Part shown: positions 1,800 through 46,534 of the stretch, in pieces
Numbering within the stretch: the stretch's first letter is position 1
Layout: each line of letters opens with the position of its first letter
Virus record (IMG/VR): IMGVR_UViG_3300023174_000047
Location: 96,001 to 160,000 of that record
Direction: 5' to 3' (one strand)
Length of the DNA stretch: 64,000 nt
DNA from: a virus
Lineage: Duplodnaviria; Caudoviricetes
Translations under genes and position numbers: made by a program
The notes under the pieces: generated by a model
What the model saw: the letters and a program-made list of their open reading frames with translations, nothing else
Database searches by the model: none
Told to the model about the DNA's origin: nothing

Positions 1800-2702
1800 A
1801 TGTCAAGCAAAAAAATAGCTGTTTGGTCTGATGTGGATTTGGATGGCGCAATGTGTCAAATAATACACACATGGATGCACGGCGAAACAAACATTGAGAA
1901 ATACACCTGCAATGCCGCAAGACTGAGAGAAGAATTACTCAAATGGCTAAACACGCACAAGTTTTCTGATTACAAGCAAGTTGTCTTTGCTGATTTAGAT
2001 ACCAGCAGCATTGCTGATCTAATTGACCTTGACAATGTAGTTATTTATGATCATCATGAATCACATAAGACGCAGGCCGCTTCGTATATCAAGGCAAGAG
2101 TACATGTGTATGATTGCAAATCTGCCGCTGAAATTATTTTTAAAGAAAACAAAAATATTTTAATCAGCCAAAAAGCAATAACACCAGAGAGAACGAAGCT
2201 TTTATTATTAGTAAGTGACTACGACAGCTATACCCTGCAATTAAAAGAATCAAAAAATTTAAGCATCATATTCTGGAGCTATACAGGCAACAGAATAGAA
2301 CAATTTTGCAAAGAATTTATTAATGGTTTTAGCGGATTTACACAATTGCAGCAAAATGCTATTGTATTCTATTATAAAAAGCTTAAAGAAATTACAGATG
2401 ACCTGCATTTATTCACAGGCACAATCAGAGATAACAAAGTTATAAGTTGCTTCTGTAGTGCAGCACATAATGATGTAGCACATTATATCATTAATACATA
2501 CAAGGCAAACATTGCCATCTTAGTTAACCCAAAAACTAAAACAGTATCATTTAGAAAAAGCAAGGATTGCAAAGTTAATTTATCTGTTCTTGCAGATACG
2601 CTATGCGGCGAAGGGGCAGGCGGACACGATGCTGCTGCTGGTGGTAAAATTACAGAAAAATTTTTATTATTTACAAAGACCTTATCTCCCCATGAATCTT
2701 GA
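1800..2702 (+). CDS. DHH/DHHA1-family phosphoesterase
   Basis: Motifs SDVDLDG, DLD, YDHHESH and the DHHA1 motif GAGGHDAAAGG. Confidence 0.88.
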   Translation: MSSKKIAVWSDVDLDGAMCQIIHTWMHGETNIEKYTCNAARLREELLKWLNTHKFSDYKQVVFADLDTSSIADLIDLDNVVIYDHHESHKTQAASYIKARVHVYDCKSAAEIIFKENKNILISQKAITPERTKLLLLVSDYDSYTLQLKESKNLSIIFWSYTGNRIEQFCKEFINGFSGFTQLQQNAIVFYYKKLKEITDDLHLFTGTIRDNKVISCFCSAAHNDVAHYIINTYKANIAILVNPKTKTVSFRKSKDCKVNLSVLADTLCGEGAGGHDAAAGGKITEKFLLFTKTLSPHES

Positions 2703-2958
2703 AAGTGAGTTTGAACAGGAGTATAGCATGCTCTCTTTTTGTAGTTTTATTACCATCATGCATGGTAAAAAATTAAATATTCCCAATATTTTTTTACTGC
2801 TACTTAAAAATAAAAAATATAGAGATTTGTTTAAAAGTATGCTTGACTTAGAGTGTGACTATCAGATATTTAAGATGTTCGTTGATTACGATCCTATGCT
2901 GTATAAAAGCAAGTATATCTCCAAATATCTCAATAAAAATGCAAATGCACTTAAGTGA
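2692..2958 (+). CDS. Hypothetical protein
   Basis: Start moved to ATG 2692 (MNLESE), which overlaps the DHH stop; fills the gap in the operon. Confidence 0.65.
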   Translation: MNLESEFEQEYSMLSFCSFITIMHGKKLNIPNIFLLLLKNKKYRDLFKSMLDLECDYQIFKMFVDYDPMLYKSKYISKYLNKNANALK

Positions 2959-3595
2959 TTTCGATAAGCATATATATAATGAATATCTAAAAGCGCAGCG
3001 TAAAGGCAAGCCATATACACTGCGCAAAAACTTTGATAATATAGACGATGAAACACAAGTATGCTTAAAGCAGCTGTCTGAGTTTTTTGCATCTTTTCCA
3101 GACATACGCATTAATGACTTTTTTAATGCAGGGTTTAAAGATACGGACTTTCAATCAATAACATTTTTTAAGAGCATGCGAGCTATAAAAATGTACCATG
3201 CATACATTGGTAATAAGCTCAACAGGGCAGATGATGACTGGGTGATTGATTTTATCAAATCATCACTGTTATATGTTCATAAATTTTGCAAACAAAATAA
3301 TTTAGCAGTTGATCAATACCTTGATGCAGAGTCACCTGCAGGTGTCCCATGGTTTGCTATTCATTTAAAAAACTTCAATGTATGCATATATTTATTACTT
3401 GCATTTTCTGACTTTGATAATAAAATAATGAAGCATAGCGATGCCATGGTAATGATTTTAGGAGATGAATTTTTTAAGGACATTACCCGCCACAGAACTA
3501 TGTTTGTCACTTCCAATAAATGCAAACAACTTGCACGTAATGGTCTTGATATTCTCAAACAACAAATAAAATACCCAACCACACAGACAAACTAA
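2939..3595 (+). CDS. Hypothetical protein, possibly a gp59-like helicase loader
   Basis: About 218 aa, directly upstream of gp32 as gene 59 is in T4; the assignment is positional only. Confidence 0.4.
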   Translation: MQMHLSDFDKHIYNEYLKAQRKGKPYTLRKNFDNIDDETQVCLKQLSEFFASFPDIRINDFFNAGFKDTDFQSITFFKSMRAIKMYHAYIGNKLNRADDDWVIDFIKSSLLYVHKFCKQNNLAVDQYLDAESPAGVPWFAIHLKNFNVCIYLLLAFSDFDNKIMKHSDAMVMILGDEFFKDITRHRTMFVTSNKCKQLARNGLDILKQQIKYPTTQTN

Positions 3596-3602
3596 AATAA
3601 CT

Positions 3603-4469
3603 ATGAAATACAATACATCCATGTTCGATAGCATTAGAGATGCTATTAATAAGCAACAAAAACAAAATACCGGCACAAGAGATATTATTTCTTTTGAAAA
3701 GGGCAATACGTACGTAATTCGTTTGCTTCCTTTTATTCAAGATCCTGATAAGACTTGGTTCAAATATTCCACCTTTGGATGGAATAGCTTTGCTACAGGA
3801 GCATACACAAGCATTATTTCACCCACTAGCTGGAATGAACGTGATCCAGTAGCAGAGGAACGCATACGCGTTTACCGTAATGGTACTGAAACAGAAAAGG
3901 AAAAGATCAAGAACATTCGCAGAAGTGATCGCTGGATCATGAATGTATATGTGGTATCAGATCCGACAAATCCTGAGAACAATGGCAAGGTCAAGATTAT
4001 TCGTTTTGGCAAGCAGCTCTACAACATTATCAACAATGCAATTAGCGGTGAAGATGCAGACGAGTTTGGTGCAAAAGTATTTGATCTTTCTTCCGCAGGT
4101 GTCAATCTCAAAGTCAAGGTTGAAGATCAAGGTGGTTATGCAAATTATACTGCAAGCCGCTTCACAAGCCCCATTGATTTGAAGCTATCCGAGAATCAGA
4201 TTGAAGAGATCTATAACTCAACTAAAGAGCTTGACAAGGTATTCAATGTCCGGTCATATGATGATATCAAGAAAATTCTCGAAGAACATTACTACTGCTC
4301 ACCTGCTACACCTGCTGCACCATTAGCAAGAGCAGCAGTTGCATCTGAACAAAGCGCACATGCAAAGCAGTTCGGTGAATCCACTGATGCAGTGGGAGTC
4401 GAGTCCATTGATGATGATGAAGATGATGATGAAAAAATGCGCAAACTGATTGAAGAACTCTCTGCATAA
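3603..4469 (+). CDS. 32: Single-stranded DNA-binding protein, T4 gp32-like
   Basis: GNTYVIRLLP, NVYVVSDPTNPENNGKVKIIRFGKQLY, and an acidic C-terminal tail. Confidence 0.9.
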   Translation: MKYNTSMFDSIRDAINKQQKQNTGTRDIISFEKGNTYVIRLLPFIQDPDKTWFKYSTFGWNSFATGAYTSIISPTSWNERDPVAEERIRVYRNGTETEKEKIKNIRRSDRWIMNVYVVSDPTNPENNGKVKIIRFGKQLYNIINNAISGEDADEFGAKVFDLSSAGVNLKVKVEDQGGYANYTASRFTSPIDLKLSENQIEEIYNSTKELDKVFNVRSYDDIKKILEEHYYCSPATPAAPLARAAVASEQSAHAKQFGESTDAVGVESIDDDEDDDEKMRKLIEELSA

Positions 4470-4472
4470 ATT

Positions 4473-5060
4473 ATGAATGAAAAAAACGCCATCCTAAACT
4501 TCATAGGCCAAATGTATGGTCAGATGAAAGAAATTGACACTAACATTGCTTCAGTAGGTAGTAGTGCAAAGTTTGGCGGTCGTAGCGCAGAGCTCGAAAA
4601 AACATTCAAACAGTTAGCAACATCTCCGTTGGAGGCCGCTTATGTGCCTCCAACGGAGATGTCTCCCGTTGAGACAATGCCCATGCAGATGCAACCACAA
4701 ATGCAGCCTGCTGTACAACAGCTACCGCTCTATCAGCCACCACAAACTGATCAGCTTGAATTTACGTTTAAAGATGATGCAAATAGCATACTCAAAGACA
4801 TTTATAATGTTTTGTTTGATATTCGCAAACTGCTAACTGAGCACACAAAAGCAATTAAAACTATAGAGACAGCACCTGCAGTCAAGAAGCCAAAAAAAAT
4901 AACATTTGCAGACTGTAGTTTGTGTGGCGGTAAACCTAAAGGTGAGCAAACACAAGATACATTGTATCAATACACATGTCAAACATGTGGAAATGTTTCC
5001 AAAGGTGTCAATGAAACACAGGCAAAAGTAGCCTGGAATACTGAAAATGTGCAGGTATAG
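4473..5060 (+). CDS. Protein with a Gln/Pro-rich linker and a C-terminal Lar-like zinc ribbon
   Basis: CSLCGG...CQTCG...AKVAWN pattern at the C-terminus. Confidence 0.5.
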   Translation: MNEKNAILNFIGQMYGQMKEIDTNIASVGSSAKFGGRSAELEKTFKQLATSPLEAAYVPPTEMSPVETMPMQMQPQMQPAVQQLPLYQPPQTDQLEFTFKDDANSILKDIYNVLFDIRKLLTEHTKAIKTIETAPAVKKPKKITFADCSLCGGKPKGEQTQDTLYQYTCQTCGNVSKGVNETQAKVAWNTENVQV

Positions 5061-5066
5061 TTATAC

Positions 5067-5783
5067 ATGAATTCAATTTATTTGGATAAAAAAGAATTTG
5101 GTGCATACATAAAAAGCTTAGTTAAAATCAACGATGCTGCTATTTTTGCCATCAATCAAAATACACTGACATGTCTCACAGGTTCACCAGATAATGTCAC
5201 CATTGCATATGGTACATTTGAAATTGAATCAAAATATGATGGCTTCCTGAATATTCCGAGCTTGATGAAGCTTAGCAAGGCTGTAGATCAAATTAGTGAA
5301 GATACACCAGGGTTTGCAATAAATGCAAACAATCTTGAATATAAATCACCTGCATTACGATTTAAATATCACTTGCTTGATAATGGTATTATTAATCAAC
5401 CAGCCATCAACATTAAAAAAATTAGTGAATTTAATTTTAACATTATATTCAAGCCTACTGCTGCAAAATTGATTGACTTGACTAAGTTTAGCGCATTTAG
5501 TACAGACAGTAACAAAGTATATCTATCATGTGATGGTGATACAGTATTTGCAGATCTAACAGATCGATCAAGATCAAATGTTGATAGCATTCAATTTGAG
5601 TTTGCAAAATGCTCTGTGCCCTTTGATGCCGTACCACTTAATCTTGATTTCTTTAGAAGCATCAATTTTAATAGTGAAAGCACAATCAATATTAACATCA
5701 ATACATCTCTCGGTGTAATCGCTATTGATATTATAAACAAGAGACATAAATTAAAGTATATCACATCTTCCTTTACTTCATGA
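5067..5783 (+). CDS. 45: Sliding clamp, T4 gp45-like
   Basis: 238 aa beta-rich protein with two-domain length; LNIPSLMKL, FKYHLLD and KYITS resemble gp45; replication context. Confidence 0.72.
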   Translation: MNSIYLDKKEFGAYIKSLVKINDAAIFAINQNTLTCLTGSPDNVTIAYGTFEIESKYDGFLNIPSLMKLSKAVDQISEDTPGFAINANNLEYKSPALRFKYHLLDNGIINQPAINIKKISEFNFNIIFKPTAAKLIDLTKFSAFSTDSNKVYLSCDGDTVFADLTDRSRSNVDSIQFEFAKCSVPFDAVPLNLDFFRSINFNSESTINININTSLGVIAIDIINKRHKLKYITSSFTS

Positions 5784-6124
5784 AGAAACAACACAATAAA
5801 ATAAACACTCTTGGATATTTTGTCAAGCGACTCAAGGATAATAAATTTATAACCTATCGCATCTTCAATGAATATGCAGCAACTGACACACGCCGCTGGA
5901 CCATTCTCGTAGAGCCAGGTATCCATAGTGTATACATCACATGCTATCAAAACAAAGAATTTGCTAATGATATTATGTATGAATTTAATGATGGTGGTGT
6001 TTTATTTCCGAAAAATTATAGCATCAAAACTGATTCCATTGAAATAATTATTACACATCTTATTAGCAGGGGTGTGGTGCCCAGTGCAAAAACTTCTGTG
6101 TATGAAAAAACGACAAAACAGTAA
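5780..6124 (+). CDS. Hypothetical protein
   Basis: ATGA overlap with the clamp stop; ordinary codon usage. Confidence 0.7.
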   Translation: MKKQHNKINTLGYFVKRLKDNKFITYRIFNEYAATDTRRWTILVEPGIHSVYITCYQNKEFANDIMYEFNDGGVLFPKNYSIKTDSIEIIITHLISRGVVPSAKTSVYEKTTKQ

Positions 6125-6473
6125 ATCTGCAGGCCTTTCCGGTGCCGCTGTTTCTGCGAGCACCAAAACAAAAAATACTGCTAAAGAAAAACTAACACCT
6201 GATGAGCGACAGGTGTTGAATACTTTAATTCATGAAGCTCTCATGCAGCAAGCAGCTCATGGCAAAGAAAAAATGTACAAGGAAGAATGTGCCCAGGCAG
6301 TCATTGCTACTTTGAGTGAATTTCTTGCCAGCTATATGCTCATTGGTTATGATTTTGAAGGAACACCCATTAGAATTATATTTGCAAAAACAGGCATGGA
6401 AGCTGATGCACTTGCGCATGCAGTACAAAATTACATTATGATGTCACATTTTAACAATGACAACGATCTTTAA
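6102..6473 (+). CDS. Hypothetical protein
   Basis: Start moved to ATG 6102 (MKKRQ); lies within the operon. Confidence 0.65.
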   Translation: MKKRQNSKSAGLSGAAVSASTKTKNTAKEKLTPDERQVLNTLIHEALMQQAAHGKEKMYKEECAQAVIATLSEFLASYMLIGYDFEGTPIRIIFAKTGMEADALAHAVQNYIMMSHFNNDNDL

Positions 6474-35864: not shown

Positions 35865-36662
35865 TTAATCGAAGATTGATTTGCCGGTTGTAAGGTTGCC
35901 TACCTTGTTGTTTTTACCCATGAGAGCCTTGCCTTTGTCACCTAAAGGCTTTGGCTCGGGCTCAACTTTAGCGCCTTTTGCTGATGTATCTGCTTTGCCG
36001 CCTGATTTGCCTGTGACTGTGCTTCTGACTTTGAAACCGCCTTTGCTCATCATTTTGTGACCTCTGTTGCCAACTGGCTTAGGCTCTGGCTTGACTTCGA
36101 TGCTTTCAGGGAATGTATCCTCATCTTCATCTTCATCTTCAAATTCATCTACATCTGCACCGAGATCCTCAGCACCCATTTCTTCATCAGTCATTTCATC
36201 TTCTGCACCACCTTCAAGTTGGCTCATGAGTGCATCGTGCAGTCTTTGTGCAAGTTCACGTGGAAGTGAAATTGTGATTTCTGATTCATCGCCTGCATCG
36301 TCTGAAATATCAATATCAAGAGCATCAATGTCCTGTGTATCTTGGTCCAAATCAGAGGGATTATCCATTACTTCTTCGTATAGAGTGTCAAAAAGAGATT
36401 TCTTTGTCATATGAGTATTTAGGGTCTGTGGCTCTGCTTTTTCAACTCCTAATGAAAATCTTTGTGGGTCATACAAATTATTTTTCTTTGACTTTTTTGA
36501 ATCAAGAGGTGATACGTATCCCGAAGCATTTGCTGGTCCACCGTGATTTTCTACGTCCATGGTTTCAGCACCCATGGTTGGTTTCTTAATTTTAACTGTA
36601 GGAAGTGGTTTACCGCCATGACCTTTTTTGGTTTTGAATTTGACTCTAGTGTTGCGTTGCAT
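35865..36662 (-). CDS. Acidic late protein, possibly prohead core/scaffold
   Basis: Start at 36662 by the TAAATA-5nt rule; long D/E-rich middle; repeated basic KPEPKP.G..G C-terminus. Confidence 0.55.
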   Translation of the reverse strand: MQRNTRVKFKTKKGHGGKPLPTVKIKKPTMGAETMDVENHGGPANASGYVSPLDSKKSKKNNLYDPQRFSLGVEKAEPQTLNTHMTKKSLFDTLYEEVMDNPSDLDQDTQDIDALDIDISDDAGDESEITISLPRELAQRLHDALMSQLEGGAEDEMTDEEMGAEDLGADVDEFEDEDEDEDTFPESIEVKPEPKPVGNRGHKMMSKGGFKVRSTVTGKSGGKADTSAKGAKVEPEPKPLGDKGKALMGKNNKVGNLTTGKSIFD

Positions 36663-36667
36663 GTTTC

Positions 36668-36688
36668 TATTTAATAAGCGTATAAATA
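36668..36688. promoter_or_regulatory. Back-to-back divergent late promoters
   Basis: TATTTA at 36668-36673 (minus strand) and TATAAATA at 36681-36688 (plus strand). Confidence 0.75.
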
Positions 36689-36696
36689 AAAACAGC

Positions 36697-38199
36697 ATGG
36701 CAAACAAAAAAGGCGATTATTATCTCAACAATCCTGCTCTACCCACAAGTAAAGCAGAGTTTGAGTATACATCTGAGATGATTAAAAATATTAAGAAATG
36801 TGAACAAAATTTGCTTTTCTTTGCAGAGAATTATTTTTACATCATAGATCCAGATGAAGGTAGAACCGTAATTAAACTATACAAGTATCAAAAAGATGCA
36901 CTGAGAATGTTGCGAGACAATAGATACAATTTGCTACTTGCAAGTCGTCAAATTGGCAAAGCTCTTGATGTAAATACACCCATCCCCTCACCAGATGGAT
37001 GGAAGACCATGGGCGAACTCAAAGATGGTGATCAAATATATGCAGCAGATGGTAGCATTTGCAATGTAGTAAAAGCACATGATGTGATGCATGATCGCAA
37101 ATGTTACAAAGTTGTTTTTAATAATGGTGAGGAGATTATTGCTGATGCGGATCATTTGTGGTTTACGCAGAGTCGATTGGAGCGACGCGCAAAGCAACAA
37201 GGTACTACAAAAACAACACAACAGTTGTTGAATACTCTTAAGACACATGGTGATGAGCCGAATCATAGAATTCCAGCATGCATTGCTGGTGTTGTAGGCA
37301 AGCACCAGCAATTACCTATGGATCCATATGTATTGGGACTATGGCTTGGAGATGGATGCAGTGATAGCAGATGCATTACAGCTAACAACCTTACAAACAA
37401 TAAACATATTCCTGATGTTTATCTCATGGCTTCAAGAGAGCAAAGATTAGAGCTGCTTAGGGGTCTGATTGATAGTGTTGGATACATGACGAAGTCAGGT
37501 GTTTGTCAGTTTTATAATACAAATCATACACTTGTTGAGCAGACCAAACAACTTGTAGAAAGTTTAGGATATAAAGTAACATCCAAGACCCATGTACCAA
37601 CCTTAAATGGTGTTGAATGCGCTGTTTGTAGCAGCATTACTTTCACTCCCATTGAGCCTCATATAAACAGCTCAAAACATAGAGCACAATGGCACTACAT
37701 CAAAGATATTCAGGAAGTTGAATCAGTTGCTGTTCGATGCATTACTGTTGATAGCAAGGACAATCTCTATTTGTGTGGAAAGCAATACATACCTACACAC
37801 AACACCACCCTGCTAACCATCTATGCATTGTGGATTGCATGTTTCAATCAAGATCAAAACATTATGATTGTTGCTAACAAAGAGAGCACAGCCATTGAAA
37901 TCTTCCGAAGAGTGCGTCTTGCTTATGAACAAATGCCAAACTGGCTCAAGCCTGGTGTTGACGAATATGGCAAGACGAGCATGATGCTCAACAATGGATC
38001 AAGAATTGGTATCAGTACCACAACTGGTTCTGCTGCTCGTGGTACATCTCTAAACTGTGTTAATGGTAATAGCATTATTACGGTTAGAAATAAAACCACG
38101 CAAGAGGTTGAAAATATAACAATTGCTGAGTTGCATCAAAGATTAGAAAAAAATACCTGGAAAACTAATTTAGTGGAAGATTCACCCAGTTTGATATAA
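36697..38199 (+). CDS. 17: Terminase large subunit, N-terminal fragment (cis intein plus N-half of a split intein)
   Basis: FAENYFYIIDPDEG, LYKYQ, SRQIGK|intein|TT, VANKESTA, LPNWLKPG-like MPNWLKPG, and RGTSLN followed by an intein block A. Confidence 0.93.
   Translation: MANKKGDYYLNNPALPTSKAEFEYTSEMIKNIKKCEQNLLFFAENYFYIIDPDEGRTVIKLYKYQKDALRMLRDNRYNLLLASRQIGKALDVNTPIPSPDGWKTMGELKDGDQIYAADGSICNVVKAHDVMHDRKCYKVVFNNGEEIIADADHLWFTQSRLERRAKQQGTTKTTQQLLNTLKTHGDEPNHRIPACIAGVVGKHQQLPMDPYVLGLWLGDGCSDSRCITANNLTNNKHIPDVYLMASREQRLELLRGLIDSVGYMTKSGVCQFYNTNHTLVEQTKQLVESLGYKVTSKTHVPTLNGVECAVCSSITFTPIEPHINSSKHRAQWHYIKDIQEVESVAVRCITVDSKDNLYLCGKQYIPTHNTTLLTIYALWIACFNQDQNIMIVANKESTAIEIFRRVRLAYEQMPNWLKPGVDEYGKTSMMLNNGSRIGISTTTGSAARGTSLNCVNGNSIITVRNKTTQEVENITIAELHQRLEKNTWKTNLVEDSPSLI
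36961..37803 (+). mobile_element. Cis intein (281 aa), class-3 type, with a degenerate LAGLIDADG endonuclease
   Basis: Starts with Ala (ALDVNTPI); block B DADHLW; block F VRCITV; ends PTHN|T; endonuclease remnants LGLWLGDG and LRGLIDSVG. Confidence 0.88.
38056..38196 (+). mobile_element. Split intein N-fragment (47 aa)
   Basis: CVNGNSIITVR...ITIAELHQRL followed by a stop codon. Confidence 0.88.
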
Positions 38200-38207
38200 A
38201 TAAACTG

Positions 38208-39872
38208 GTGGTTATAGAAATAAAACAAACTGCAGATGCAGCTGCAAAATTAAGCAAAAAGAGTTTCGATGACCACCAGCTTAGTTTTATAGTAAAACAT
38301 ACACTATACAGTGATGACATAACTTTTGCACAAAATGTTTTTAATATCATCAACGGCAATGTTGTTTGGCTCTGCAAGAATTGCAGCAATGCATTAAAAT
38401 TTAGAGGATACAAAGATGGATATGGGTTGTTTTGTTCAACGAAGTGTGCAAATACAAGCAATGTTGATAAGATTAAACAGACACACATCAACAAATATGG
38501 CAAACCGTGGATAGGTTCAAAAATTTGCAGAGAGTATCAAGCTAAGTTAAACTTGCAGAAGTATGGTACGGAGATTTACCAACAAACTAATGAGTTTAAA
38601 CAAAAATTGCAAGACACATGGATCAACAAAGATAAAGAAGCATTGATGGCAAAGATGGTGCAAAAAAATTTAGAAAAGTATGGGACTGATCACTATTTTG
38701 AAACCGATGAATTCAAAAACAAATCACAACTCACATGTCTTAAAAAATATGGTGTCAGTAATGCAATGCAAAGTGCTGAAATTCAGAACAAAGCAAAAGC
38801 CAACAGTGCACTCAAATATATTGATGATATTCAAGAGCAGTGCAATGTAAAGTTGATTGATGAATATAATGGTTGTGCAAAGTATACAAAATATCAGTGG
38901 CAATGTTTAGTATGCAACAACAGCTTTTATGCAGATATATCCATCGGTCACCGCCCCCGGTGTTTCAATTGCAATCCCAGACAAGGAACAAACATTGAAG
39001 AGCGGTTGTTTGAATTTTTAAATGAATGTGGTATTTCATATATTATTCGCAGCAGACAGGTGATATCGCCCTATGAGGTGGATATTTTTATTCCACAAAG
39101 CAATGTTGCCATTGAAGTCAATGGATTAATTTGGCATAGTCTTAGATCTGGTGGCAAAGATAAATTGTATCATGTTAATAAATTTCAAATGTGTCTAGAC
39201 AAGGGCATAAAACTCATACAGCTATATGAGGATGATATACTTGATGAGGATAAATTTAACATCATCAAAAGTAGATTGTCTGTTGTTCTTAATATGCAAG
39301 GCATGCAGCGAATTTATGCTCGTAAATGTGAATTTAAAAAAATCAATGCAACAGATGCAAAAACATTTTGTAATGAAAACCATCTTGATGCTTACTGCAA
39401 TGCCCAATTTAATTATGGGTTATTCCACAACAATAAACTTGTTTCCGTTGCTTGCTTCTCAACAGTTAAATCGAGAATCATATTTCGCCAAAGCAATCAG
39501 CCTGCTGCACATGAATTAATTAGATTCTGCTGCATAAAAAATACTCAGGTCATAGGTGCATTGAGTAAATTTGTTAAAAATCATGCAAACCTACACCAAA
39601 CCAACATTATTTCATATTGCGATTTGAATTGGGGTAGAAGTACATCTTATATTCATGCAGGATTTGAATATATAAAGCAAACTAGCCCCGGCTTCTACTA
39701 CATTAAAAACAACAAAAGACATCATAGATTTACTTTTGCTAAGCACAAGCAAAAGCAATTATTTGAAAACTTTGACCACAATTTGACAGAATTTCAAAAC
39801 TGTTTTAACAATAATATTGATGTATTGTTTAATGTGGGTTGCGATAAATATATGTATAAATGGCTGACCTAA
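38208..39872 (+). CDS. Free-standing Vsr-like (Hef-like) endonuclease with a C-terminal Mom-like GNAT domain (GTG start)
   Basis: EERL...EVDIFIP...AIEVNGLIWHS...LIQLYEDD; KYG repeats; C-terminal IYARKC...ELIRFC...SYCD. Confidence 0.8.
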   Translation: MVIEIKQTADAAAKLSKKSFDDHQLSFIVKHTLYSDDITFAQNVFNIINGNVVWLCKNCSNALKFRGYKDGYGLFCSTKCANTSNVDKIKQTHINKYGKPWIGSKICREYQAKLNLQKYGTEIYQQTNEFKQKLQDTWINKDKEALMAKMVQKNLEKYGTDHYFETDEFKNKSQLTCLKKYGVSNAMQSAEIQNKAKANSALKYIDDIQEQCNVKLIDEYNGCAKYTKYQWQCLVCNNSFYADISIGHRPRCFNCNPRQGTNIEERLFEFLNECGISYIIRSRQVISPYEVDIFIPQSNVAIEVNGLIWHSLRSGGKDKLYHVNKFQMCLDKGIKLIQLYEDDILDEDKFNIIKSRLSVVLNMQGMQRIYARKCEFKKINATDAKTFCNENHLDAYCNAQFNYGLFHNNKLVSVACFSTVKSRIIFRQSNQPAAHELIRFCCIKNTQVIGALSKFVKNHANLHQTNIISYCDLNWGRSTSYIHAGFEYIKQTSPGFYYIKNNKRHHRFTFAKHKQKQLFENFDHNLTEFQNCFNNNIDVLFNVGCDKYMYKWLT

Positions 39873-40201
39873 ACAATCATATTTCTGTTTTTAATTCTGA
39901 GTATGAAATTTTAACACATGAAGGTTTTAAGGATTTCAAAGGCGTAATTAGGGGCGATAATCACAACAAAATTGAGTTGGAATTGTCAAATGGACGCAAT
40001 TTGATATGCACACCCAAACATAAAATATATAAGCACGATATGCAAATTGCATTTGCAGAAGATTTGCATGCAGGTGATGAATTGTATAATGGCATTGAAA
40101 TTAAGAAGAAAACCCAATTTACAGACAGCAACAGTGTGTATGAAATAATACACATACAAGATAATCATTCATATTTGGTAAATGATGTTTTGTGTCATCA
40201 A
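39860..40201 (+). mobile_element. Split intein C-fragment (114 aa) ending in His-Gln
   Basis: EILTHEGFKDF, block B CTPKH, block F VYEI, block G YLVNDVLCHQ|C. Confidence 0.88.
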
Positions 40202-41404
40202 TGTCTCATTCTAGATGAGCTTGCATTCATTGATCCACCTTCCATCATGGATGATTTTTGGCGATCAGTGTGGCCAACCATTTCTCGATCCAAACACTCC
40301 AAAGTCCTCATTGCCTCTACACCCAAAGGCACAGATAACCTGTTTTATCAGCTGTATGACGGGGCCATCAAAGGTGAGAATGGCTTTGCAAGCATGACCA
40401 TCAAATGGGATGCAGTTCCTGGTCATGATGAAAAGTGGAAACGTGAACAAATCAAACAAATCGGTAGCGTGGAATCATTTATGCAAGAATATGATTGCCA
40501 GTTTCTTCAAAGTGGTGAATCGTCCATTGACTTGAGCACATTTGATAAACTCAGGCAATATTGTACAACACCTCAGTTTTTTCTTGAAAGCGACAAATAT
40601 ATGATATGGAAATCACCACTACCAGATCGTCTGTATGCAGTTGGTGTTGATGTTGCTGAAGGAGTAGGTCAGAATTATTCTGTTATTCAAATTCTTGATA
40701 TCACCGATTTGACCAGCATTGAGCAAGTTGCTGTTTACAGAGATAATACCATTGCACCAGCACAATTTACAACAAAATTGCATGAAATAATGCAGCAATG
40801 GGGAAACCCCTTGGTTCTCATTGAAAGAAACAACTGCGGTGCTCAGGTTGTTGATAATCTGCGGAATATACATCAGTATGAAAATATTGTAAGCTATGGG
40901 GCTGAACTAGCTGGCCGCAAAAAAGATTTTTTAGGTGTTGTTGCTCACACCAACACCAAACAGCGCGGTGTTCGCAACATGAGATACTGGGTCAATACAC
41001 TCAACTGTGTGCGTTTCAATCATTTACAGACTATTCTTGAGCTCAAAGACTTTGTATGCAAGCCCAACGGAACATGGAGTGCGCGTGGCAGTGGAGTGGA
41101 CGATTGTGTCATGAGCCTCATTTGGGCACTGGTGTTGCTTGATAATGACCCACAGTATGGCATATGCGGCAATTATTTTGAAGTTGTTGATTTGGATGAA
41201 AATGGCAAACCTAGATCCATCAAGCCTTTGGATTACGGCTTAAAGTACTTCACATCAAACAATAAAAAATATGATTTGTTTGGCAATGCATTGGAAGCCA
41301 CTAAATACTCAGATGCAGCAAGCTTGCCCATTGTGTTTGGCAGTTCTACCAATCAAAGCAGCGAAGTAAGTGACCTTGAATTAGAGGGCTGGACAATATT
41401 ATGA
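39860..41404 (+). CDS. 17: Terminase large subunit, C-terminal fragment (split-intein C-half, Walker B and nuclease domain)
   Basis: After HQ|C: LILDELAFI, IASTPKG..N.FY, FMQEYDCQF, GVDVAEG, IERNN.G and DDCVMS. Confidence 0.93.
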   Translation: MADLNNHISVFNSEYEILTHEGFKDFKGVIRGDNHNKIELELSNGRNLICTPKHKIYKHDMQIAFAEDLHAGDELYNGIEIKKKTQFTDSNSVYEIIHIQDNHSYLVNDVLCHQCLILDELAFIDPPSIMDDFWRSVWPTISRSKHSKVLIASTPKGTDNLFYQLYDGAIKGENGFASMTIKWDAVPGHDEKWKREQIKQIGSVESFMQEYDCQFLQSGESSIDLSTFDKLRQYCTTPQFFLESDKYMIWKSPLPDRLYAVGVDVAEGVGQNYSVIQILDITDLTSIEQVAVYRDNTIAPAQFTTKLHEIMQQWGNPLVLIERNNCGAQVVDNLRNIHQYENIVSYGAELAGRKKDFLGVVAHTNTKQRGVRNMRYWVNTLNCVRFNHLQTILELKDFVCKPNGTWSARGSGVDDCVMSLIWALVLLDNDPQYGICGNYFEVVDLDENGKPRSIKPLDYGLKYFTSNNKKYDLFGNALEATKYSDAASLPIVFGSSTNQSSEVSDLELEGWTIL

Positions 41405-41979
41405 CTGACATCGTACAATCACCATTTAATAAAGCACGTGTTGATAAGTTTACTATGGTAATAAACTTACCACCTGCATTAAAAAGCATCAACAGCAAAT
41501 TCACACGCAGCAATAAAAATGTAAACATTGATGCTCTGCAATTTTCTGTGTTTGGCACAGTAATTCCTGACATTGTTGTGCCTGCAGTTGAGACAAGATT
41601 TGGAGGCAGCACTATTTATGTATCATCTCACAGCAGACCATCATTCCCGCCTGTAACCATCAACTTCACCATTGATAATGAATTTAATAATTATTGGTGC
41701 ATATATCAGTGGCTTAATTTAATGCGAGATGAGAGAGAAGGTGTATTTGGAGTTGTGAATAGCAGAGGACTTGCAGGTGCAGAAGCCGTTTTAGATGAGT
41801 ACACCACAACTTTTACGTTGTATGCTAAAAATGAATTCAACAACAACATCATTAAATTTGAATTTCTCAAAGCTTTTCCTACAAAATTGGGCAGCATTTC
41901 TTTAAACTATCAAGATAGCAAAGAAATCCCTTGCTCATTCGATTTTGTATTTTCCAACATTACTTCTACTCTGCTTTAA
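41401..41979 (+). CDS. 3: Tail completion / tube terminator, T4 gp3-like
   Basis: IPDIVVP and INFTIDNEFNNYWCIYQWL resemble the gp3 F.VDEE...W..MYEW segment. Confidence 0.65.
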   Translation: MTDIVQSPFNKARVDKFTMVINLPPALKSINSKFTRSNKNVNIDALQFSVFGTVIPDIVVPAVETRFGGSTIYVSSHSRPSFPPVTINFTIDNEFNNYWCIYQWLNLMRDEREGVFGVVNSRGLAGAEAVLDEYTTTFTLYAKNEFNNNIIKFEFLKAFPTKLGSISLNYQDSKEIPCSFDFVFSNITSTLL

Positions 41980-42009
41980 ATTTATGCTTGATTTTTCATA
42001 AATATCTAC

Positions 42010-44732: not shown

Positions 44733-44776
44733 GTTAAATCTTTATGTTTATATAGTATTATGCAATAAATAGCAAT

Positions 44777-46534
44777 ATGTCTTTGATAGAAGAAATACAG
44801 AGCAATTTATACACAAAAACAAACAAAATTAATACTGCCATAATAAGGCAAGATTGGTTTAAAAAATCTAATTTGTATGCAGATATAATGAAAGAGACAT
44901 CCTTTCTTGACAATGACGTATGCTTTGCAGCGCGAATATTTTGCATAGTCAATAATATCAAGAGCATGCCAGCGTGCCCTGTAACCGGTAAAAGTGTTAA
45001 GTGGTTACCTACAAAACATAGATTTGCCATTGCTGCTGGCAGATCAAATGCATCTAAAATTAAAAAAATTGATAATGCAAAACTATCTCAAAGCCTCAAA
45101 GCATCAAAAGCATTAATCAAAAGTAACTTCTACAGCCTATACAAAACAAATAAATTTAATATTGTCAGTAGAGAAAAATGCACAGACTTTATAAAGAGCA
45201 GATTGGAACACACCGATCACGGAAGAAAGCATAATTTTGTAGATACATCTATACTTAAAAAATATCATGATGAGTGTTGCAGCATTATTCTACATACACA
45301 GCATCCATTATTAGATGATAATGATATAAACTGGAGTGAAAGGTTTTTTCTTTTGTATAATAATGATGTCCCGAAACTATGTAATTATGATCCCACACAA
45401 AAGGCAAAATTTTGCAATTTCTTAGCTGGGTACAATAACAATAGTTCTGCACAGGCAAGGAATAAAAACACATTAAAAATAATCAAGCAATCCATTGAGT
45501 ATCAAAACTTCTCTATTTTAAATGATATAAACTCACATCAACAAGAGTATCAATTGAGATGCAATGTCTGTAATAGTATTTTACAGCGAAGATTGACAAA
45601 TGCGCGCTGGAAAGATATATTTTGTGCCAAATGCAACAATGTTACCGTGGGATCGTCTCGTGCAGAAGCAGAGATATCTGCTTTTCTGCAAAATGACTGC
45701 AACATGCAGGTTGAGAGATTATATGACTTGCCACCTAGTGGAATAGAAATCGATATATTTCTACCACAGAAAAACGTTGGTATCGAGCATCACGGCTTAT
45801 TGTGGCATAGTTTTGGTTCTTGCTTCCCCGACAATGCAGATGTTGAAAGTGTAAACAAATTTAAGCATAGAAATAAGCGGGATATATGCATGAGCAACAA
45901 TGTACAGTTGTTGCAGATTTTTGAAAATGAATGGATTGATAAAAGAAACATTGTTGAGTCAATGATGCGTAGCAAGTTAGGAATATTGCAAAATAAAATC
46001 TATGCTCGCAATTGCACAATACAATGCATCACAGCAAAACAGAAAAGTATTTTTCTTAATAATAATCACATACAAGGCAATGACAATTCACAAATTGCAA
46101 TTGCTCTAATTCATGAAGGTGACATTGTTGCAGCAATGACTTTTGGTAACCGCAAAATAACTGCAAATAAAACTTTTGAACTCATAAGATTTTGCTGCAA
46201 AACAAACACAAGCGTTATTGGAGGTGCCTCTAAATTATTAAAATACTTTACAAAAAAACATAATGTATCATGCATTACAACATATGCTGATTTGAGATTT
46301 TGCTTTGATGGTTCGTTTTACAAAAACTTAGGCTTTAAGCACATCAGAACAACACCACCTGCATACTGGTACACAGATACAAAGACTGTGATGCACCGCT
46401 CCAACTTTCAAAAACATAAATTAGTAAAACAGGGTGATGATTTGAGTCTTACAGAATGGGAAATTATGAAAGAGCGTGGGTGGCGTAGAATATGGGATTG
46501 TGGTCACATGGTTTTTGAATATAAATATTCATAA
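44777..46534 (+). CDS. Second Vsr-like (Hef-like) endonuclease with a C-terminal Mom-like GNAT domain
   Basis: SRAEAEI...EIDIFLP...GIEHHGLLWHS...LLQIFENEW; IYARNC...ELIRFC...GGASKLL...TYAD...YKNLGF...PPAYWY. Confidence 0.8.
   Translation: MSLIEEIQSNLYTKTNKINTAIIRQDWFKKSNLYADIMKETSFLDNDVCFAARIFCIVNNIKSMPACPVTGKSVKWLPTKHRFAIAAGRSNASKIKKIDNAKLSQSLKASKALIKSNFYSLYKTNKFNIVSREKCTDFIKSRLEHTDHGRKHNFVDTSILKKYHDECCSIILHTQHPLLDDNDINWSERFFLLYNNDVPKLCNYDPTQKAKFCNFLAGYNNNSSAQARNKNTLKIIKQSIEYQNFSILNDINSHQQEYQLRCNVCNSILQRRLTNARWKDIFCAKCNNVTVGSSRAEAEISAFLQNDCNMQVERLYDLPPSGIEIDIFLPQKNVGIEHHGLLWHSFGSCFPDNADVESVNKFKHRNKRDICMSNNVQLLQIFENEWIDKRNIVESMMRSKLGILQNKIYARNCTIQCITAKQKSIFLNNNHIQGNDNSQIAIALIHEGDIVAAMTFGNRKITANKTFELIRFCCKTNTSVIGGASKLLKYFTKKHNVSCITTYADLRFCFDGSFYKNLGFKHIRTTPPAYWYTDTKTVMHRSNFQKHKLVKQGDDLSLTEWEIMKERGWRRIWDCGHMVFEYKYS

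Follow-up and report, generated by a model that had tools for sequence, protein, structure and literature searches.

A large terminase gene fractured by a split intein and a gap endonuclease, with a second intein in its P-loop, in an uncultured T4-like phage

How does a phage obtain a working packaging motor when its only gene for that motor is broken into separate reading frames? The question is posed by the large terminase gene (terL) of an uncultured freshwater T4-like phage of ~204 kb, known from the IMG/VR virus record IMGVR_UViG_3300023174_000047, of which positions 96,001 to 160,000 (64,000 nucleotides; hereafter the window) were analysed. In this record, 203,774 bp long and 96% complete, the gp17-like terL is present once only. 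It occupies 36697-41404 as three plus-strand open reading frames (ORFs), each in a different frame and all of them open: an N-terminal terminase gene (TerL-N), an endonuclease gene in the gap, and a C-terminal terminase gene (TerL-C). An earlier note, made from the sequence alone, had interpreted this as a fractured gene whose halves are joined through a split intein, within an essential packaging motor that harbours a second intein. That interpretation is upheld here: terL is the sole copy in the record, the second intein (intein 1) lies in the P-loop, the defining features of a fractured gene are all present, and the expected spliced product is exactly collinear. Because the gene is the only terL in a 96%-complete record, a working product is needed from it. 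Very probably, terL has been invaded by two independent splicing elements, TerL-N and TerL-C are trans-spliced to a single TerL, and the gene in the gap is responsible for homing.

Coordinates and frames agree with the layout first described, down to the 13-nt overlap of the endonuclease ORF with TerL-C (Table 1). The ORF translations likewise return the proposed intein halves, a 47-aa N-terminal half (IntN, CVNGN...SLI) and a C-terminal half (IntC, MADLN...VLCHQ, followed by CLILDELAF). Pfam detects a homing-endonuclease/LAGLIDADG signal and an intein-splicing signal in TerL-N, Terminase_6N, Terminase_6C and an intein signal in TerL-C, and DUF7487, a weak Vsr match and Mom in the endonuclease ORF. 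No GenBank phage was matched when the locus was searched with megablast.

Table 1. Features of the fractured terL locus, in window coordinates
Feature	Position	Strand	Description
TATAAATA start-proximal signal of TerL-N	36681-36688	+	TAAATA at -14 from ATG
TerL-N	36697-38199	+	500 aa from ATG; extein 1, intein 1, extein 2, IntN
TerL extein 1	36697-36960	+	88 aa; C-terminal end is the Walker A residues SRQIGK
Intein 1	36961-37803	+	281 aa, contiguous, class 3 type, in the Walker A P-loop
TerL extein 2	37804-38055	+	84 aa; TTLLT...RGTSLN
IntN	38056-38199	+	47 aa plus stop; block A only; CVNGN...SLI
TATAAATA overlapping the TerL-N stop	38195-38202	+	TAAATA at -11 from the endonuclease GTG
Homing endonuclease gene, free-standing	38208-39872	+	554 aa, GTG start
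Zinc ribbon and DUF7487 helical repeats (KYG motif)	38355-38837	+	Endonuclease residues ~50-210; presumed DNA-binding region
EDxHD (Vsr-like) nuclease domain	38991-39287	+	Endonuclease residues ~262-360
Mu Mom-like GNAT-fold domain	39303-39857	+	Endonuclease residues ~366-550
TerL-C	39860-41404	+	514 aa; IntC, then extein 3
IntC	39860-40201	+	114 aa; MADLN...VLCHQ; block B TPKH, block F, block G ending His-Gln
TerL extein 3	40202-41404	+	400 aa plus stop; Cys+1, Walker B LILDE, remaining ATPase, RNase H-like nuclease domain

Whether the pieces add up to a terminase can be judged from the computed product. Joining TerL-N 1-88, TerL-N 370-453 and TerL-C 115-514 gives 88+84+400 = 572 aa and 65.2 kDa. 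In phmmer searches of solved structures, TerL-N 3-89 and 370-454 align to T4 gp17 chain positions 81-167 and 167-251, and TerL-C 116-421 to positions 252-548, with no residue missing or duplicated. The product was also compared with 15 related viral contigs, in most of which the three extein pieces are directly joined in a single ORF; eight uninterrupted relatives align without gaps at both junctions. Two of the contigs (L011 and L017) carry a homologue of intein 1 between exteins 1 and 2, and L013 has a different insertion, inside extein 3. The closest relative, L005, is uninterrupted and shares 74/89/66% identity with the window over extein pieces 1/2/3. Its junction reads ...GSAARGTSLN-V-LILDELAFIDPPSIMDDFWRSV against ...GSAARGTSLN-C-LILDELAFIDPPSIMDDFWRSV in the window, the only difference being Val versus Cys at +1, and Cys occurs naturally at this position in two further uninterrupted relatives. 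The alignment to intein-free gp17 homologues that the earlier note had proposed is thus gap-free against both T4 gp17 and the eight relatives, its sum of 572 aa of contiguous gp17-like sequence holds, and the collinearity, as judged from these alignments, is far beyond chance. TerL-C also resumes at Walker B as had been described: Cys+1 is followed by LILDE, which places the intein four residues before the Walker B Asp-Glu. The spliced junction would read ...RGTSLN-CLILDELAF, and the tryptic peptide predicted across it is GTSLNCLILDELAFIDPPSIMDDFWR.

The element that would join these pieces is an intein in two halves. IntN begins with CVNGNSIITVRNK. Blocks B, F and G all lie in IntC, where the block B Thr-x-x-His is TPKH (residues 51-54) and the end is Cys-His-Gln, followed by Cys+1. 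Because block B is in IntC, the split falls between blocks A and B and is of the atypical short-IntN type. The residues expected of a class 1 intein are in place, namely Cys454 at position 1, Thr51/His54, Gln114 and Cys115 at +1. Homologous IntC sequences begin 22 other metagenome TerL-C proteins (44-54% identity there); the Met-Ala-Asp start, Cys50, Thr51, His54, Gln114 and Cys115 are invariant among them, and the penultimate residue varies between His, Arg, Lys, Asn, Glu and Met. Gln in place of Asn at the intein C-terminus is an accepted variant, and inteins with a C-terminal Gln do splice (PMC4031507).

Terminases are known hosts of such inteins. AceL-TerL, GOS-TerL and the consensus Cat (PDB 6DSL) represent natural, atypically split TerL inteins, which trans-splice and have been engineered (PMC11766414). 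The call of a split intein in the earlier note stands, though it left unsaid that the intein is of the atypical short-IntN type of this characterised family. In the PDB, the IntC family profile has its best match in 6dsl_B, “Consensus engineered intein CatC” (E 1e-11); the single IntC sequence matches the same chain at E 0.009. The window intein resembles AceL-TerL and GOS-TerL in its short IntN and long IntC (25/104 in AceL, 37/115 in GOS and 47/114 in the window), in its TerL host and in Cys+1. Unlike these two and Cat, it ends in Gln, is of low sequence identity to them, and has an extra 13-aa tail on IntN. The terminal residue of AceL-TerL, GOS-TerL and Cat we take to be Asn, as the construct in 6dsl, which ends in His-Ala-Cys, would suggest.

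A search of 1.84 billion protein representatives with the IntC profile yielded 741 clusters at E <= 1e-10, in a ranking that favours Gln types, the sequences from which the profile had been made. Of 172 members that were inspected, ~95 are split and ~76 internal; 49 are split with an Asn end, 42 split with a Gln end, 68 internal with an Asn end and 8 internal with a Gln end, and in almost all of them Cys+1 and then the Walker B Asp-Glu follow. The terminal Gln is conserved across a whole, mostly split clade (42 split and 8 internal clusters), which is a modest new point. P0168 is an example of a contiguous Gln-ended mini-intein at the same TerL site. The NCBI metagenome protein P0134 (871 aa) has IntN and IntC in a single ORF, within which the Met-Ala-Asp-Leu start of the split form is kept (…EPQEAAMADLYNH…); it looks as if the halves of a formerly split intein had fused again, or as if the gene call had read through. 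Searching the literature for natural split inteins with a Gln end returned incidental co-occurrences only, which is not proof that none has been described. Contiguous inteins that end in Gln (those of Pab and Mma PolII and of CIV RNR; PMC4031507) likewise have Gln for Asn at G:7 and a presumed cyclisation in step 3, but these act in cis within unrelated host proteins, whereas the Gln of the window intein is fixed in a mostly split clade.

A model of the complex between TerL-N 440-500 and TerL-C 1-135 scored 0.87 (best control 0.00), a mark reached by 51/78 solved complexes and by 2/108 mismatched pairs. Model runs share at least 75% of contacts, with a partner pLDDT of 66-69. The two halves are predicted to rebuild one HINT fold, in which IntN 454-487 contacts IntC 112-115 and 48-55 and the 13-aa IntN tail remains outside. 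Because a like complex (6dsl) has already been solved, this score speaks for likeness to known split inteins and is not proof.

From the observed anatomy, collinearity, family memberships, conservation and purifying selection, a route to one TerL can be proposed. The three genes would be translated separately, each behind a start-proximal TAAATA signal. Intein 1 would leave TerL-N in cis, from between Lys88 and Thr, and IntN would dock into IntC to complete the HINT fold. Cys1 and Cys+1 would then perform the acyl shift and trans-thioesterification, and the terminal Gln would cyclise, with the exteins joined into the 572-aa, 65.2-kDa TerL. The endonuclease, for its part, would be expected to cut the intein-less terL of co-infecting relatives near the junction, the cassette spreading by gene conversion. 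An essential packaging ATPase would on this account need two protein-level repairs, cis-splicing in Walker A and trans-splicing beside Walker B. Trans-splicing of TerL is what the conserved catalytic residues point to; the activity of the endonuclease and its target at the junction we infer.

The same intein halves could conceivably act as a non-covalent clamp only, giving a two-chain terminase without ligation, as reported for the endonuclease-split NrdA of phage Aeh1. The predicted binding of IntN to IntC would suit a clamp, as would the variable penultimate His of block G and a terminal Gln that can cyclise slowly, and there is a precedent for a fractured phage gene that works unspliced (PMC3045599). 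We nevertheless consider this very unlikely, because the residues needed for chemistry alone (IntN Cys1, the block B Thr/His, the terminal Gln and Cys+1) are invariant in the 22 homologues and also over 50 Gln-type clusters. A clamp would moreover leave an unspliced HINT domain of 160 residues in the ATPase core, four residues before the Walker B acidic pair, and the family members AceL-TerL, GOS-TerL and Cat do trans-splice (PMC11766414).

Several points weigh against trans-splicing to one TerL. The case is built on sequence and model, and the complex model may owe its high score to solved split inteins that the predictor has learned. The intein ends in Gln and not Asn, and Gln slows step 3 in some cis inteins (PMC4031507). 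At the penultimate position the IntC family does not conserve His, though the window copy has it. Finally, the junction is a putative target of the endonuclease, and the proposed route leaves the additional Mom-like domain without explanation.

The record was assembled from a metagenome and has no isolate, and the layout might be an artefact of assembly or the dead gene of a phage that is itself defective. An independent JGI contig (L023), however, shows these three ORFs with lengths and overlap unchanged, and is 96.9% identical to the window over the locus, with no indels and mostly synonymous divergence. Contigs of several other freshwater metagenome runs also cover the locus without joints or frame-breaking gaps, one of them spanning 37900-40400 gap-free with 123 substitutions. 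These independent copies exclude an artefact or pseudogene, and the open frames of a sole terL likewise leave such an explanation scarcely any probability. Between the window and L023, dN/dS is 0 to 0.016 in the exteins, 0.07 in IntC, 0.22 in IntN, 0.18 in intein 1 and 0.086 in the endonuclease, which is under purifying selection. Over most of 36400-41700 the two copies show 0-3 differences per 100 bases, whereas over 38000-39300, which takes in the last part of extein 2 together with IntN and the N-terminal two-thirds of the endonuclease, they mostly show 5-13. The dS of this stretch is 0.26-0.35 against 0.02-0.09 elsewhere, and its boundaries are sharp. It is a recombinant patch with the mobile cassette at its centre.

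The content of the gap differs between relatives. In L020, a TerL-N with intein 1 and IntN is followed by a gap of 74 nt (2647-2720) and then TerL-C; in L021 and L022 the gap is occupied by an ORF of 50 aa (4846-4998 in L021), and another related locus has a 281-aa ORF there. The tails of the L020 and L021 gaps (…GWKKGRPSKK and …DNWLRGTGKRKN) are unlike the window endonuclease, which suggests that they are remnants of a different endonuclease and that the gap occupant turns over. Because relatives keep the split after loss of the endonuclease, the split halves must work on their own, and retention of the split without an endonuclease in an essential gene is the strongest indirect argument for trans-splicing.

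A single terminase could also be obtained if the endonuclease ORF were removed from the RNA as a group I intron and a contiguous, intein-bearing TerL were translated, which is the alternative that the earlier note had set against its own reading. Group I introns can indeed harbour Vsr-like endonucleases (PMC2677866), and the genome paper of the Campylobacter phage IBB_35 read a similar layout as a terL interrupted by “an intein and an intron” (PMC3322345). The evidence from the window gives this alternative practically no credence. An Rfam scan of 36000-42000 contains no group I intron or other credible match at E <= 1, its only returns being two sub-threshold chance matches, to a snoRNA and a tmRNA fragment. 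The flanks at both boundaries of the endonuclease ORF fold no better than shuffles (z -0.94 and +0.18), and only 8 nt plus the 13-nt overlap lie outside the ORF to provide an intron structure. Furthermore, TerL-C has its own Met-Ala-Asp start, invariant in all homologues, and the relatives with a 74-nt gap have the same two separate ORFs.

Separate expression is supported by the signals before the three genes. Across the whole window, TAAATA lies <=30 nt upstream of the start codon in 24/53 ORFs of >=120 aa, where ~1.6% would be expected; it is mostly found 11-12 nt before the start and is often built with the TAA stop of the preceding gene (for example, at 1788-1793, 38197-38202 and 44766-44771). 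Each of the three ORFs has its own copy, as the earlier note had observed, 11-15 nt before the start and above chance, with the usual spacing found only at the endonuclease (-11, against -14 for TerL-N and -15 for TerL-C). The full TATAAATA is not enriched in the window (9 versus 6.35), only TAAATA at a fixed distance from the start, and a scan for sigma-70 promoters does no better than shuffles (21 found versus 20.1 expected). The presence of TAAATA before each ORF supports both separate expression and the GTG start of the endonuclease, and its short, fixed spacing suggests a late-type promoter with nearly leaderless mRNAs or a translation signal used in place of Shine-Dalgarno. The copy at 38195-38202 forms the loop region of a putative hairpin with a 7-bp stem (CCAGTTT/AAACTGG), which is kept in L023.

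What, then, is the protein encoded between the intein halves? Its full length matches PHROG 3339, “homing endonuclease”, at E 1.5e-97. When modelled with AlphaFold from an alignment of 42 sequences, it reaches a mean pLDDT of 89, and in Foldseek its middle domain superposes on I-Bth0305I (3r3p) with a TM score of 0.77-0.78 on the target, an rmsd of 2.6-2.9 and 27% identity. The family profile matches 3r3p at E 6.3e-8; profile and fold searches were needed, as phmmer of the single sequence against PDB sequences found nothing. Among the homologues, E290 of the catalytic set is present in 38/42, whereas D292, E303 and H310 are kept throughout (42/42). All 42 also have an acidic residue at position 343, within the conserved E341/D342/D343 cluster. 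By profile and fold, the protein is accordingly assigned to the EDxHD (Vsr-like, Hef-type) homing endonucleases. Phage Hef-type endonucleases were placed in the EDxHD family by Taylor et al. (PMC3239194), and Campylobacter phage Los1 has a homologue that carries the annotation Hef-like. I-Bth0305I shares the nuclease fold and the Glu/Asp/His/Asp set with the window protein; unlike it, I-Bth0305I is intron-encoded, with NUMOD-type N-terminal modules and no GNAT-like domain.

The “Vsr-like” label of the earlier note fits the nuclease domain and is incomplete for the protein, as it passes over the zinc ribbon/DUF7487 region and the Mom-like GNAT domain. The latter matches Pfam PF25680 (Mom) at 7e-10 and, in Foldseek, phage Mu Mom (8bv8, E 8e-7) and GNAT acetyltransferases; its residues H392, E436, R439, Y470 and D472 are invariant in the 42 homologues. 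A second, free-standing paralogue of the same architecture (27% identity, E 1e-37) lies at 44777-46534, after the tail sheath gene, and more than 1000 homologues have this architecture, most of them probably outside fractured genes.

These features leave some room for a gap protein that is no longer, or not only, a homing endonuclease, having been co-opted for a GNAT activity on DNA or for competition between phages. Such a role, which is compatible with trans-splicing, would be in keeping with the strong purifying selection (dN/dS 0.086), the free-standing paralogue, the many homologues probably outside fractured genes and the invariant polar residues of the GNAT-like domain. A selfish homing element, in contrast, predicts the position between the intein halves, the intact EDxHD catalytic set and the replacement or loss of the gap gene in relatives, all of which are observed; co-option is, on balance, unlikely though not far-fetched. 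We would offer as a rather doubtful conjecture that the Mom-like GNAT may be an active DNA-directed enzyme, and that the Gln clade may comprise the first natural split inteins to trans-splice via Gln cyclisation, with the penultimate His dispensable. If true, a widespread Hef/EDxHD class would couple the cutting of rival alleles with base modification or modification-dependent recognition.

The other splicing element, intein 1, aligns at both of its ends to structures of the Mycobacterium smegmatis DnaB intein (E 1e-23). It bears the marks of class 3, with Ala1, ADADHLW (Trp B:12), VRCITVD (Cys F:4) and IPTHN (Thr G:5) followed by Thr+1; the class is recognised by the lack of an N-terminal nucleophile together with a Trp/Cys/Thr triplet (PMC4031507). 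With the class 3 P-loop inteins (Msm DnaBi1, PDB 6bs8, 6rix; Tori and Perler) it shares Ala1, the Trp, Cys F:4, Thr G:5 and the position after the P-loop Lys. Unlike Msm DnaBi1, whose host is DnaB, intein 1 is in TerL and has a decayed LAGLIDADG domain. Relative to the homologues in L011, L017 and L020 there is an internal deletion of ~53 aa, and the second LAGLIDADG motif reads GLIDSVG and not GLIDSDG, the catalytic Asp being replaced by Val. Owing to this deletion and the lost second catalytic Asp, the endonuclease of intein 1 is probably dead; the splicing residues are intact, and the picture is that of an intein that still splices while its homing endonuclease decays.

Split inteins in fractured genes, together with Vsr-like endonucleases, were described in 2009 by Dassa, London, Stoddard, Schueler-Furman and Pietrokovski, and a gp17-like terminase locus from Lake Gatun is among their 26 loci (PMC2677866), so that the earlier note was right to call them known from environmental phage sequence. 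The locus studied here resembles theirs in its same-strand ORFs with intein halves, the Vsr-like gene between them, the ORF overlap and the hairpin upstream of the endonuclease. It differs in being complete and in a near-complete 204-kb genome, in being split between blocks A and B, in an endonuclease that is ~2x longer and has a Mom-like GNAT, and in the class 3 intein carried by the same gene. As an element type already known and biochemically characterised, it brings little conceptual novelty for phage biology. What is distinctive is the clade-wide Gln, the presence of a class 3 intein in the P-loop of the same gene and the Mom-like domain that the endonuclease carries; beside the Gln, the class 3 type and decayed endonuclease of the P-loop intein and the turnover or loss of the gap endonuclease are modest new points. 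The family as a whole spans the homing cycle, from an empty site through a contiguous mini-intein and a split intein with endonuclease to a split intein with a decayed or lost endonuclease and an apparent re-fusion, and the Gln-terminated, short-IntN clade is a candidate pool of relatives of the Cat and AceL-TerL labelling inteins for protein engineering.

Cultured phages offer further points of comparison. The Campylobacter phages CP21 and vB_CcoM-IBB_35 have a homologous split intein at the same codon position, a gap endonuclease gene and a P-loop intein; unlike the window, their gap ORF is GIY-YIG-like, their IntC ends in Asn, and a third, contiguous intein follows Walker B. In CP21 (L001), terL spans 2118-6404 with a P-loop mini-intein, the split intein and, directly behind the Walker B Asp-Glu, a contiguous mini-intein. 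The gap ORF of this phage encodes 421 aa, its IntC ends in His-Asn, and GenBank annotates only fragments of the gene as terminase. In Vibrio phage vB_VmeM-32 (L002, 1102-3216), a contiguous mini-intein with homology to both IntN and IntC of the window lies six codons further downstream, between IYVDE and Cys. Around Walker B, therefore, related inteins are found at sites that are close together but not the same.

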